Source: Escherichia coli
Lineage (GTDB): Bacteria; Pseudomonadota; Gammaproteobacteria; Enterobacterales; Enterobacteriaceae
Direction: 5' to 3' (one strand)
DNA: 1,551 bases
Assembly: GCF_003334335.1 (NCBI RefSeq)
Contig: NZ_QOWQ01000102.1
In this document: piece after piece, positions 33 through 1,551 of the stretch
Layout: each line of letters opens with the position of its first letter
How positions within the stretch are numbered: the stretch's first letter is position 1
The notes under the pieces: model-generated
Told to the model about the DNA's origin: nothing
The model's input: only the letters and a program-made list of their open reading frames with translations
Database searches by the model: none
Translations under genes and position numbers: made by a program

Positions 33-218
33 CCATTTTTACTGTAAAACCGTGGCCAATATTACTTGACCACTACAGCATTACCGAAACGGCTTTCATC
101 GCTGCAAGGTTTTTCTTTGCCGGAATGTATCCGGTCAGCTTATACCCTGCTGATAACCTGCGCCCTTAAACATGCGGGCTGCAGCCTGTTGAGCCTGCCT
201 GAAATGAGCTAGGATTAG

Positions 219-446
219 GTGAAACACCTATCCATCTTGGTGTACTGTACATATGAAGCATGTGCCTTGATGCAGCTTGTAGCGATTTGTATGCAACCGA
301 TGACATTAATCCGTAAGACATGGGAAAAGATAGCAACTGAGATCCTAAGTTTGAATGTTATCACGCCTGCGTTTGAGAAACTTCGTTGGAAAAGTAACCT
401 CGGTAAACCCCCGTGCCCTGAGCTCATTCCGGAGATGCTGTCATAG
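219..446 (+). CDS. Hypothetical small protein (75 aa), unrecognised; possibly spurious
   Basis: ORF from the supplied track with a GTG start at 219 and TAG stop at 444-446. An AGGA motif sits at 211-214, 4 nt upstream of the GTG. No family recognised. It is fully overlapped by the antisense ORF 215-427. Confidence 0.15.
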
Positions 447-486
447 TGACCGTCTTGCTATTGGTGGGAATTGGAGACTGAATGTT

Positions 487-520
487 TTGACAAGACAGTC
501 CGGGAAATTCTGGGTGTAAT
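487..520 (+). promoter_or_regulatory. Candidate sigma70-like promoter upstream of the tRNA remnant (perfect -35 hexamer, poorly spaced -10)
   Basis: TTGACA at 487-492 is an exact -35 consensus. The nearest -10-like hexamer is TGTAAT at 515-520, giving a 22-nt spacer, which is longer than the usual 16-19 nt. A promoter-like motif only. Confidence 0.2.
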
Positions 521-549
521 CATATAAGACAGGTGATATTGCGTTCTCC

Positions 550-620
550 AACCCTTTAGCTCAGTGGTAAGAGGACTCATAATCGCTTGGTCGCTGGTTC
601 AAATCCAGTAAGGGCCACCA
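550..620 (+). pseudogene. Degenerate tRNA-Ile(CAU)-like remnant (tRNA-Ile2 / ileX-ileY family); not foldable into a full cloverleaf
   Basis: Seen in sequence: D-arm GCTC(559-562)/AGTGGTAA/GAG; anticodon loop CTCATAA (576-582, anticodon CAT); variable region TGGTC; T-arm GCTGG(593-597)/TTCAAAT/CCAGT(605-609); acceptor 3' strand AAGGGCC (610-616), discriminator A, encoded CCA (618-620). Defects: the acceptor 5' strand reads AACCCTT (550-556) where GGCCCTT is needed, and only GA lies between the D-stem and the anticodon loop, so the 3' anticodon-stem strand TCGCT (583-587) has no partner. From memory of the enterobacterial tRNA-Ile2 sequence this amounts to a deletion of about 5 nt plus a few substitutions. 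Confidence 0.6.
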
Positions 621-931
621 TCACACACTGCCACTGGCCCATTGCGCCATGCCCGGCGCATATCAGCCACAGAGCCTTTCGGGGATAATTTGCAGAGTGG
701 TCTGGCTGACTTTCTCTGTAGGCAGATCGTTCCCGCTTGATAGCTCATCCCCCAAAGAAACGTCACGATATTTGGTATTTTCAAAATTCAAAAAGAAAAC
801 CCGCAGAGTGGCAACAGAGATTAAAAAGTTTGAGAAACGCGATCTGGCACAGGCGGTGATTGGTGTTGGAGTGATGGTAGATTTTATCAGCCGGATAATG
901 TCGGTTCTGGCTGATAGCTGGGGTTGTTGGT

Positions 932-1126
932 GTGGTCTTCCTATTGATGAAAAAACAAGCAATTACTTGGCATATTATCTGTAACACTTTAAAACTGTTA
1001 AGAAGATCACAATTCATTATGTTTATTATTGTCTGGCCGGAGGGATATTTGTTAAAAAGTGCGCCGTGTGGTGAATCCCCCTGTGCGGTGGGGCGACTGG
1101 TGTACATAGCATTTATTATGTTATGA
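932..1126 (+). CDS. Hypothetical small protein (64 aa), unrecognised; likely spurious
   Basis: ORF from the supplied track with a GTG start at 932 and TGA stop at 1124-1126, about 90 nt upstream of the strong plus-strand terminator. It lies in an AT-rich tract and overlaps ORFs 649-984 (+) and 781-1107 (-). No convincing ribosome-binding site and no recognisable motif. Confidence 0.1.
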   Translation: MVFLLMKKQAITWHIICNTLKLLRRSQFIMFIIVWPEGYLLKSAPCGESPCAVGRLVYIAFIML

Positions 1127-1217
1127 GCGAAGCCTACGCGGGTTCAGTGACACCGACTGAATTCACCGGGAGGCACCCGGCACCATGCAACAGACGCAAG
1201 TTAGGCTAAGCCTTATA

Positions 1218-1246
1218 CCCCTGTAAGTTTTTTACAGGGGTTTTTT
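1218..1246 (+). terminator. Rho-independent terminator (perfect 9-bp stem, 5-nt loop, T6 tract)
   Basis: CCCCTGTAA (1218-1226) pairs perfectly with TTACAGGGG (1232-1240) around loop GTTTT, followed immediately by TTTTTT (1241-1246). Confidence 0.7.
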
Positions 1247-1254
1247 GTGCACAG

Positions 1255-1277
1255 AAAACCCCCAGCTAGGCTGGGGG
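1255..1277 (-). terminator. Candidate rho-independent terminator for minus-strand transcription (convergent with the 1218-1246 terminator)
   Basis: CCCCCAGC (1259-1266) pairs with GCTGGGGG (1270-1277) around a 3-nt loop. On the minus strand the hairpin is followed by TTTTCTGT (complement of 1251-1258). The U-tract is only 4 nt, so this is weaker than the plus-strand terminator. Confidence 0.4.
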
Positions 1278-1551
1278 TTCCGGAAAGCTTTCAGCTTTGA
1301 GCCAGTTATTAAAACTCTGAACCGGTTCCTGGCACGAATATCATTCCCGGCCTGCGCTTTGATTATCTCAGCGACTCCGGCGGGAACTTCAGCCGCAGTC
1401 TGAATCTTTCGCAGGAATTGGGCGATTATTTCAAAGTCAAAGCAGGGGTTGCCCGAACCTTTAAAGCCCCAAACTGTACTGACCCCAAAAAGTTGGACAG
1501 TTAAACACGAGGCATATAGGTCTGATTCCGATATTCAATTGGAGTCAGACC

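Follow-up and report, generated by a model that had tools for sequence, protein, structure and literature searches.

Does the right edge of this stretch of Escherichia coli DNA hold a gene, the relic of one, or neither? The window, that is, the whole stretch of 1,551 nucleotides that was analysed (contig NZ_QOWQ01000102.1 of RefSeq assembly GCF_003334335.1), closes with two open frames on opposite strands, which the first-pass annotation had described as start-less and as possible relics of a disrupted gene. The plus frame (1313-1501) runs for 63 codons without a stop, and the minus frame, put at about 100 codons, is open at 1235-1534 and ends with TAA at 1232-1234. In each of the three minus-strand frames, a stop lies no more than about 51 nt from the right edge (1501-1503, 1545-1547 and 1535-1537), as had been noticed. 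The statement that neither frame has an ATG, GTG or TTG is correct for ATG, which is absent from both, but not for the other two codons. TTG occurs in the plus frame at 1418 and 1493, and the ORF listing calls a TTG-started 28-aa ORF at 1418-1504 on the plus strand; the minus frame contains a GTG at 1250-1252, its only canonical start codon, which lies six codons ahead of its stop.

Open frames and homology at the right edge

When the window was shuffled 1000 times with its dinucleotides preserved, a stop-free run of at least 100 codons arose in 669 cases; for 1232-1551 alone, it arose in 99 of 1000. The window contained 15 stop-free runs of at least 50 codons versus 12.7 expected. Openness by itself is therefore unremarkable.

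Every stop-free segment of at least 20 aa in 1232-1551 was searched against Pfam, NCBIfam, PHROGs and PDB, and nothing matched except the plus frame, which matches the iroN gene, and a segment with a match to phrog_8016. Of the two long frames, the plus frame alone gave a homology signal. A lack of homology in every frame, which had been named beforehand as speaking against a relic, was thus not what the searches gave. In the phage collection, 1232-1551 was unmatched; the partial matches there, at 76-85% identity, all lay upstream of 1190.

We dissected 1232-1551 by comparison with annotated relatives (handles of the type L001 denote the compared sequences). What stands at the right edge of the window is ordinary debris from an E. 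coli genomic island, in which four unrelated pieces are joined. The components iroN, IS150, IS200 and STnc100 are each already well known, and nothing here is new in kind. The features are as follows.

1036-1250, plus strand: STnc100-family prophage sRNA gene (Rfam RF02076)
About 1246-1315, plus strand: left-end remnant of IS200C, about nt 1-70 of 707
1316-1317, no strand: junction bases TC, unassignable, between IS200 nt ~70 and iroN nt 1293
1318-1474, plus strand: internal pseudogene fragment of iroN, nt 1293-1449, codons 432-483 of 725
1472-1474, no strand: left copy of the 3-bp target-site duplication AAC (iroN codon N483)
1475-1551, minus strand: 77 nt from the end of IS150 (IS3 family) that lies downstream of its transposase gene, running off the window
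1501-1551, minus strand: last 16 codons and stop of the IS150 orfB transposase, ending in ...GLTPIEYRNQTYMPRV and TAA at 1501-1503
1235-1534, minus strand: 100-codon frame, a chance chimeric frame and no gene

The identities of the segments, the junctions between them and the target duplication are supported directly by the data. We are highly confident in the overall reading of the region as a scar left by successive mobile-element events in an island carrying the salmochelin locus, with the plus frame as a scrap of iroN and the minus frame as a by-product.

The plus frame is a scrap of iroN

IroN is the salmochelin outer-membrane receptor, a TonB-dependent protein of the FepA family that is encoded in the iroBCDEN cluster and serves iron uptake. 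Positions 1318-1474 agree with the intact iroN carried on plasmid p13P484A-2 (L003) at 155 of 157 bases (98.7%); of the two differences, one is silent (at E432) and the other is P457R. The fragment shares its phase with the plus frame 1313-1501, and the plus-frame translation matches NCBIfam NF010051 (FepA family) at positions 432-486 of 727 with E = 5.2e-23, so that homology to the receptor family is found in the correct reading frame. Because 1318-1474 is in-frame iroN, the plus frame is a genuine remnant of a gene that has been disrupted. To this extent the original suggestion was right; the minus frame, which is chimeric and matches no family, is no such relic.

Unlike a receptor gene, the fragment is far from complete. 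It holds 52 of the 725 codons and scores 81.2 bits against NF010051, far under the curated cutoff of 583. It lacks a promoter, a start codon, the N-terminal part, the signal peptide, the plug domain and a complete barrel. In place of the 5' 1292 nt of iroN stands the IS200 stump, and IS150 separates the fragment from the 3' part. Since iroN is thus split by IS150 and deprived of its first 1292 nt, what remains is a dead fragment; judged from its sequence, the scrap is probably functionless and would be unable to be expressed as a receptor. The 157-bp scrap is absent from the RefSeq annotation, in which only the 732-bp 3' piece of iroN is called a pseudogene.

To read the left junction of the fragment, the window was compared at once with IS200C (L002) and with intact iroN (L003). 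Microhomology was considered: AAC occurs nearby in both partners and is followed by two mismatching bases, and the two bases at 1316-1317 are assignable to neither.

The IS150 end and the target duplication

The IS150 end opens with the inverted-repeat sequence TGTACTG, and from 1475 the window reads TGTACTGACCCC.... Positions 1475-1551 show 100% identity to annotated IS150 ends from 2,827 E. coli genomes. With the far end taken from relatives, the element agrees with IS150 in its terminal inverted repeats (TGTACTG...CAGTACA), its 3-bp duplication and its length of about 1443 bp, and also in having an IS3-type transposase (orfB integrase core) that ends near the inverted repeat. The RefSeq CDS of the IS150 family transposase in relatives ends at the equivalent of window position 1501, and the translations agree, with all 16 codons of the window identical to the annotated CDS end of a relative. 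The C-terminal 110 aa of a relative's transposase match NCBIfam transpos_IS3 at positions 272-369 of 369 with E = 8e-43. The minus-strand stop at 1501-1503 is the genuine stop of the IS150 transposase, which the first reading had overlooked.

IS150 stands in the context ...CCAAAC, IS150, AACCTGTATCAA in four of the compared sequences (L001, L004, L010 and L011), and uninterrupted iroN reads CCAAACCTGTATCAA. The presence of AAC on both sides, together with the uninterrupted sequence, indicates a simple insertion with a 3-bp duplication. The length of the element at this site is 1443 bp in the plasmid copy (L011), 1444 bp in two chromosomal relatives (L001, 7398-8841; L004, 4225-5668) and 1360 bp in strain NCTC86 (L010, 4995-6354). 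The 1444-bp chromosomal IS150 is annotated as frameshifted with in-frame stops. Given that IS150 is frameshifted or shortened in these relatives, the copy entering the window may itself be defective. A 14-pair hairpin (GGTCTGATTCCGAT...ATTGGAGTCAGACC; -21 kcal/mol) is located at window positions 1519-1551, within the last transposase codons, and is part of IS150.

An IS200C stump behind the STnc100 terminator

At the left, 1232-1551 begins in the terminator of the STnc100-family gene, and this terminator part (1232-1250) is all that the region shares with the gene. The gene matches the full Rfam model (1-206) with 138.5 bits versus a gathering score of 47 (E = 4.7e-32). Its intrinsic terminator, found by a terminator scan, consists of a hairpin at 1217-1241 with an 11-pair stem, folding at -15.1 kcal/mol, and a T-run at 1241-1246 (TTTTTT). 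STnc100 is a prophage-associated sRNA related to PasD (bioRxiv 10.64898/2026.05.13.724894), and the gene in the window resembles the one described there in its full-length model match, its terminator and its setting in a prophage remnant.

The sequence that follows is the left end of IS200C. Positions 1237-1315 show 98.7% blastn identity to the sequence directly upstream of an annotated IS200C tnpA (L002), and an alignment of five independent IS200C copies (L002, L005, L007, L008 and L009) revealed identity to the window over 1247-1315 and divergence after ...TTATTAAAAC. The first base of IS200C is ambiguous within 1241-1247, because the element inserts into terminator T-runs; nt 1 was set at about 1246 from the published terminator position, nt 12-34 (PMC4513863). 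The published landmarks of IS200 are this bidirectional terminator, the tnpA start near nt 40, a stem-loop in the 5'UTR at nt 69-138, and art200, a 90-nt RNA antisense to the tnpA 5'UTR that starts at nt 153/154 (PMC4513863). As expected for the left end, the stump keeps the bidirectional terminator hairpin, at 1257-1279 (-18.7 kcal/mol), and it retains the region of the tnpA transcription start. Its position directly 3' of the host terminator T-run is shared by four other independent copies. In contrast to the complete element, it has neither tnpA (the Y1 transposase gene) nor a right end, since the similarity stops at 1315 and is followed by iroN, and it lacks the 5'UTR stem-loop, the Shine-Dalgarno sequence and the art200 promoter.

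At 5 of 5 independent sites, IS200C was found directly after a host Rho-independent terminator hairpin, in or after its T-run. These sites are downstream of gndA, brnQ, STnc100, an iroB-side ORF and a plasmid gene. IS200C thus seems to have a strong preference for terminator targets.

The stump also produces an Rfam match to STnc490 at 1257-1343, whose 62.4 bits exceed the gathering score of 56 and could be taken to mean that a functional gene for the art200 antisense sRNA is present. However, model positions 1-64 alone truly align, a deletion bridges the remainder, and the sequence after 1315 is iroN. Furthermore, IS200 is broken at about nt 70, and the art200 promoter and almost the whole of its body lie beyond this breakpoint and are hence absent, so that a 90-nt antisense RNA is not encoded. 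A functional art200 gene is almost certainly not present; since only the IS200 stump is there, the above-threshold match marks a false "gene".

A second match concerns protein databases. A TTG-started ORF on the plus strand (1245-1403) begins over the translated IS200 left end, MCTENPQLGWGFRKAFSFEPVIKT..., and the translation of window positions 1245-1322 matches phrog_8016, a PHROG of unknown function, at profile positions 1-26 of 62 with E = 8e-15. This PHROG probably groups ORFs that were miscalled over the non-coding left end of IS200.

The minus frame is a chance chimera

The minus frame passes in turn through the end of IS150, antisense iroN, the IS200 stump and a part of the STnc100 terminator, and within the IS150 end it is out of phase with the transposase frame. 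Coding sequence commonly gives rise, through its composition, to long open frames on the opposite strand. The antisense strand of intact iroN is stop-free for 158 codons, and the openness of the minus frame is therefore mostly the shadow of a coding strand. The frame is for the most part stop-poor antisense iroN, lengthened by chance over both junctions.

The alternative is that the minus frame is a relic, or even a live remnant, of a protein-coding gene. Its 100 codons without a stop would fit such a gene, as would the equivalent antisense frame of intact iroN with its 158 open codons, but the frame is built from four segments of independent origin. As the pieces were joined by three separate events, no single ancestral gene could span it. 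It has no ATG, and its sole GTG stands six codons ahead of the stop. The translation has no match in Pfam, NCBIfam or PDB, and its matches among PHROGs are at noise level only (E >= 0.23). Runs as long as this one arise in 67% of the window shuffles, which also argues for a chance frame. A protein-coding origin is thus extremely improbable, and we regard the minus frame as a by-product of the scar.

The first-pass annotation had counted it against a live gene that the frame reads through its own terminator hairpin. The frame does read through hairpins: it passes the IS200 hairpin (1257-1279) and enters the 3' half of the STnc100 hairpin (1217-1241). Neither is a terminator of the minus frame, as they belong to IS200 and to the STnc100 sRNA gene.

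The left side of the window

Positions 1-77 are the end of another IS3-family element (ISEc31-like), with a plus-strand transposase stop at 66-68. With IS ends at both edges, the window is the whole stretch between two IS transposase genes. The match in 48 otherwise identical genomes begins only at base 78.

Between this end and STnc100, RefSeq annotation in relatives gives a truncated gene for a DUF3927-domain protein at 772-885 and, further upstream, a hypothetical pseudogene at about 257-443. The phage matches Evi and PPyecE name a nearby TciA/TerB-like protein. These observations fit the remnant of a prophage on the upstream side of STnc100. Positions 550-617 resemble a degenerate tRNA whose anticodon loop carries CAT and whose anticodon stem lacks about 5 nt; this sequence scores 30.7 bits with the Rfam tRNA model versus a gathering score of 29, and ARAGORN called no tRNA over the window. 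It is probably a decayed prophage tRNA gene.

Relatives and the proposed order of events

Window positions 78-1551 are 99.6% identical to 48 complete E. coli chromosomes. The strain NCTC86 is 99.9-100% identical to the window, except for an additional IS4. This IS4 (L010, 3357-4782) lies in the loop and 3' arm of the IS200 hairpin and is flanked by an 11-bp duplication of 1263-1273. In SCEC020026 (L006), a breakpoint is identical to the IS4 site of NCTC86; the genome of the window is without this IS4.

It had been proposed to extend the window rightwards to see whether a gene or a gene remnant continues. Read from relatives that are 99.6-100% identical, not from the source genome, a gene remnant does continue past IS150. 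The order in these relatives is IS150, 732 bp of the iroN 3' part up to its stop, iroE, iroD and iroC, so that the synteny of iroN with iroE, iroD and iroC is preserved there. In the chromosomal relatives, iroE and iroC are frameshifted. Together with the frameshifted IS150, this indicates that the whole iro locus is decaying in this lineage.

A complete IS200 is present at the identical STnc100 junction in E. coli O104:H4 (L005). Window positions 1000-1330 are covered to at least 80% in 382 genomes, and the IS200-iroN fusion is found in only 52 genomes. The complete IS200 and these counts therefore mark the fusion as the derived state. The plasmid copy (L011) has the identical IS150 insertion site with the 5' part of iroN intact, from which it follows that the IS150 insertion was independent of the 5' deletion and probably earlier.

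The history of the scar may be reconstructed as follows. IS200C would have landed in the T-run of the STnc100 terminator, a target of the kind that it usually takes, and IS150 would have entered iroN after nt 1449, duplicating AAC. A later, illegitimate deletion would then have joined nt ~70 of IS200 to nt 1293 of iroN, at the cost of the remainder of IS200, nt 1-1292 of iroN and the DNA between them. What remained would be the 157-nt in-frame scrap of iroN between the IS200 stump and the IS150 end. The deletion is ascribed to illegitimate recombination because its breakpoint is away from the end of the IS. We infer this order of events from the comparison; the insertion of IS150 before the deletion is the most economical order, by parsimony, and a repeated insertion at the same site is possible.

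A possible transcript from the scar

The scar might also give rise to a new chimeric non-coding transcript with possible regulatory effects, in one of two versions. In the first, a transcript would start at the weak tnpA promoter of IS200 (around 1285), pass through the iroN scrap and run antisense to the 3' end of the IS150 transposase gene. In the second, read-through from IS150 on the minus strand would be halted at the bidirectional IS200 hairpin. The retained nt 1-70 of IS200 do include the bidirectional terminator and the stretch in which tnpA transcription is reported to start (PMC4513863), and the hairpin at 1257-1279 is stable (-18.7 kcal/mol). On the other hand, the tnpA promoter is intrinsically weak and its elements are undefined (PMC4513863), a promoter scan of 1232-1551 found no sigma-70-like site, and the fusion is conserved in one clonal lineage only, that of the 52 genomes. 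There is at best a slim chance that such a transcript with regulatory effects exists. The more specific prediction, that the weak outward promoter and the bidirectional terminator of the stump yield a lineage-specific RNA made up of the IS200 leader, the iroN scrap and antisense IS150, has a slimmer chance still; if it were true, the chimeric RNA would dampen the expression of the IS150 transposase or act as a new sRNA.

Meaning of the scar

We conclude that start-less long open frames across mobile-element junctions, such as the minus frame described here, are not to be taken for genes. The finding carries little biological weight, and its value is for annotation. The region records how the salmochelin receptor gene decayed in a single E. 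coli lineage, to which the historic strain NCTC86 belongs, and the agents of this decay are the insertion of IS150 and a deletion anchored in IS200.
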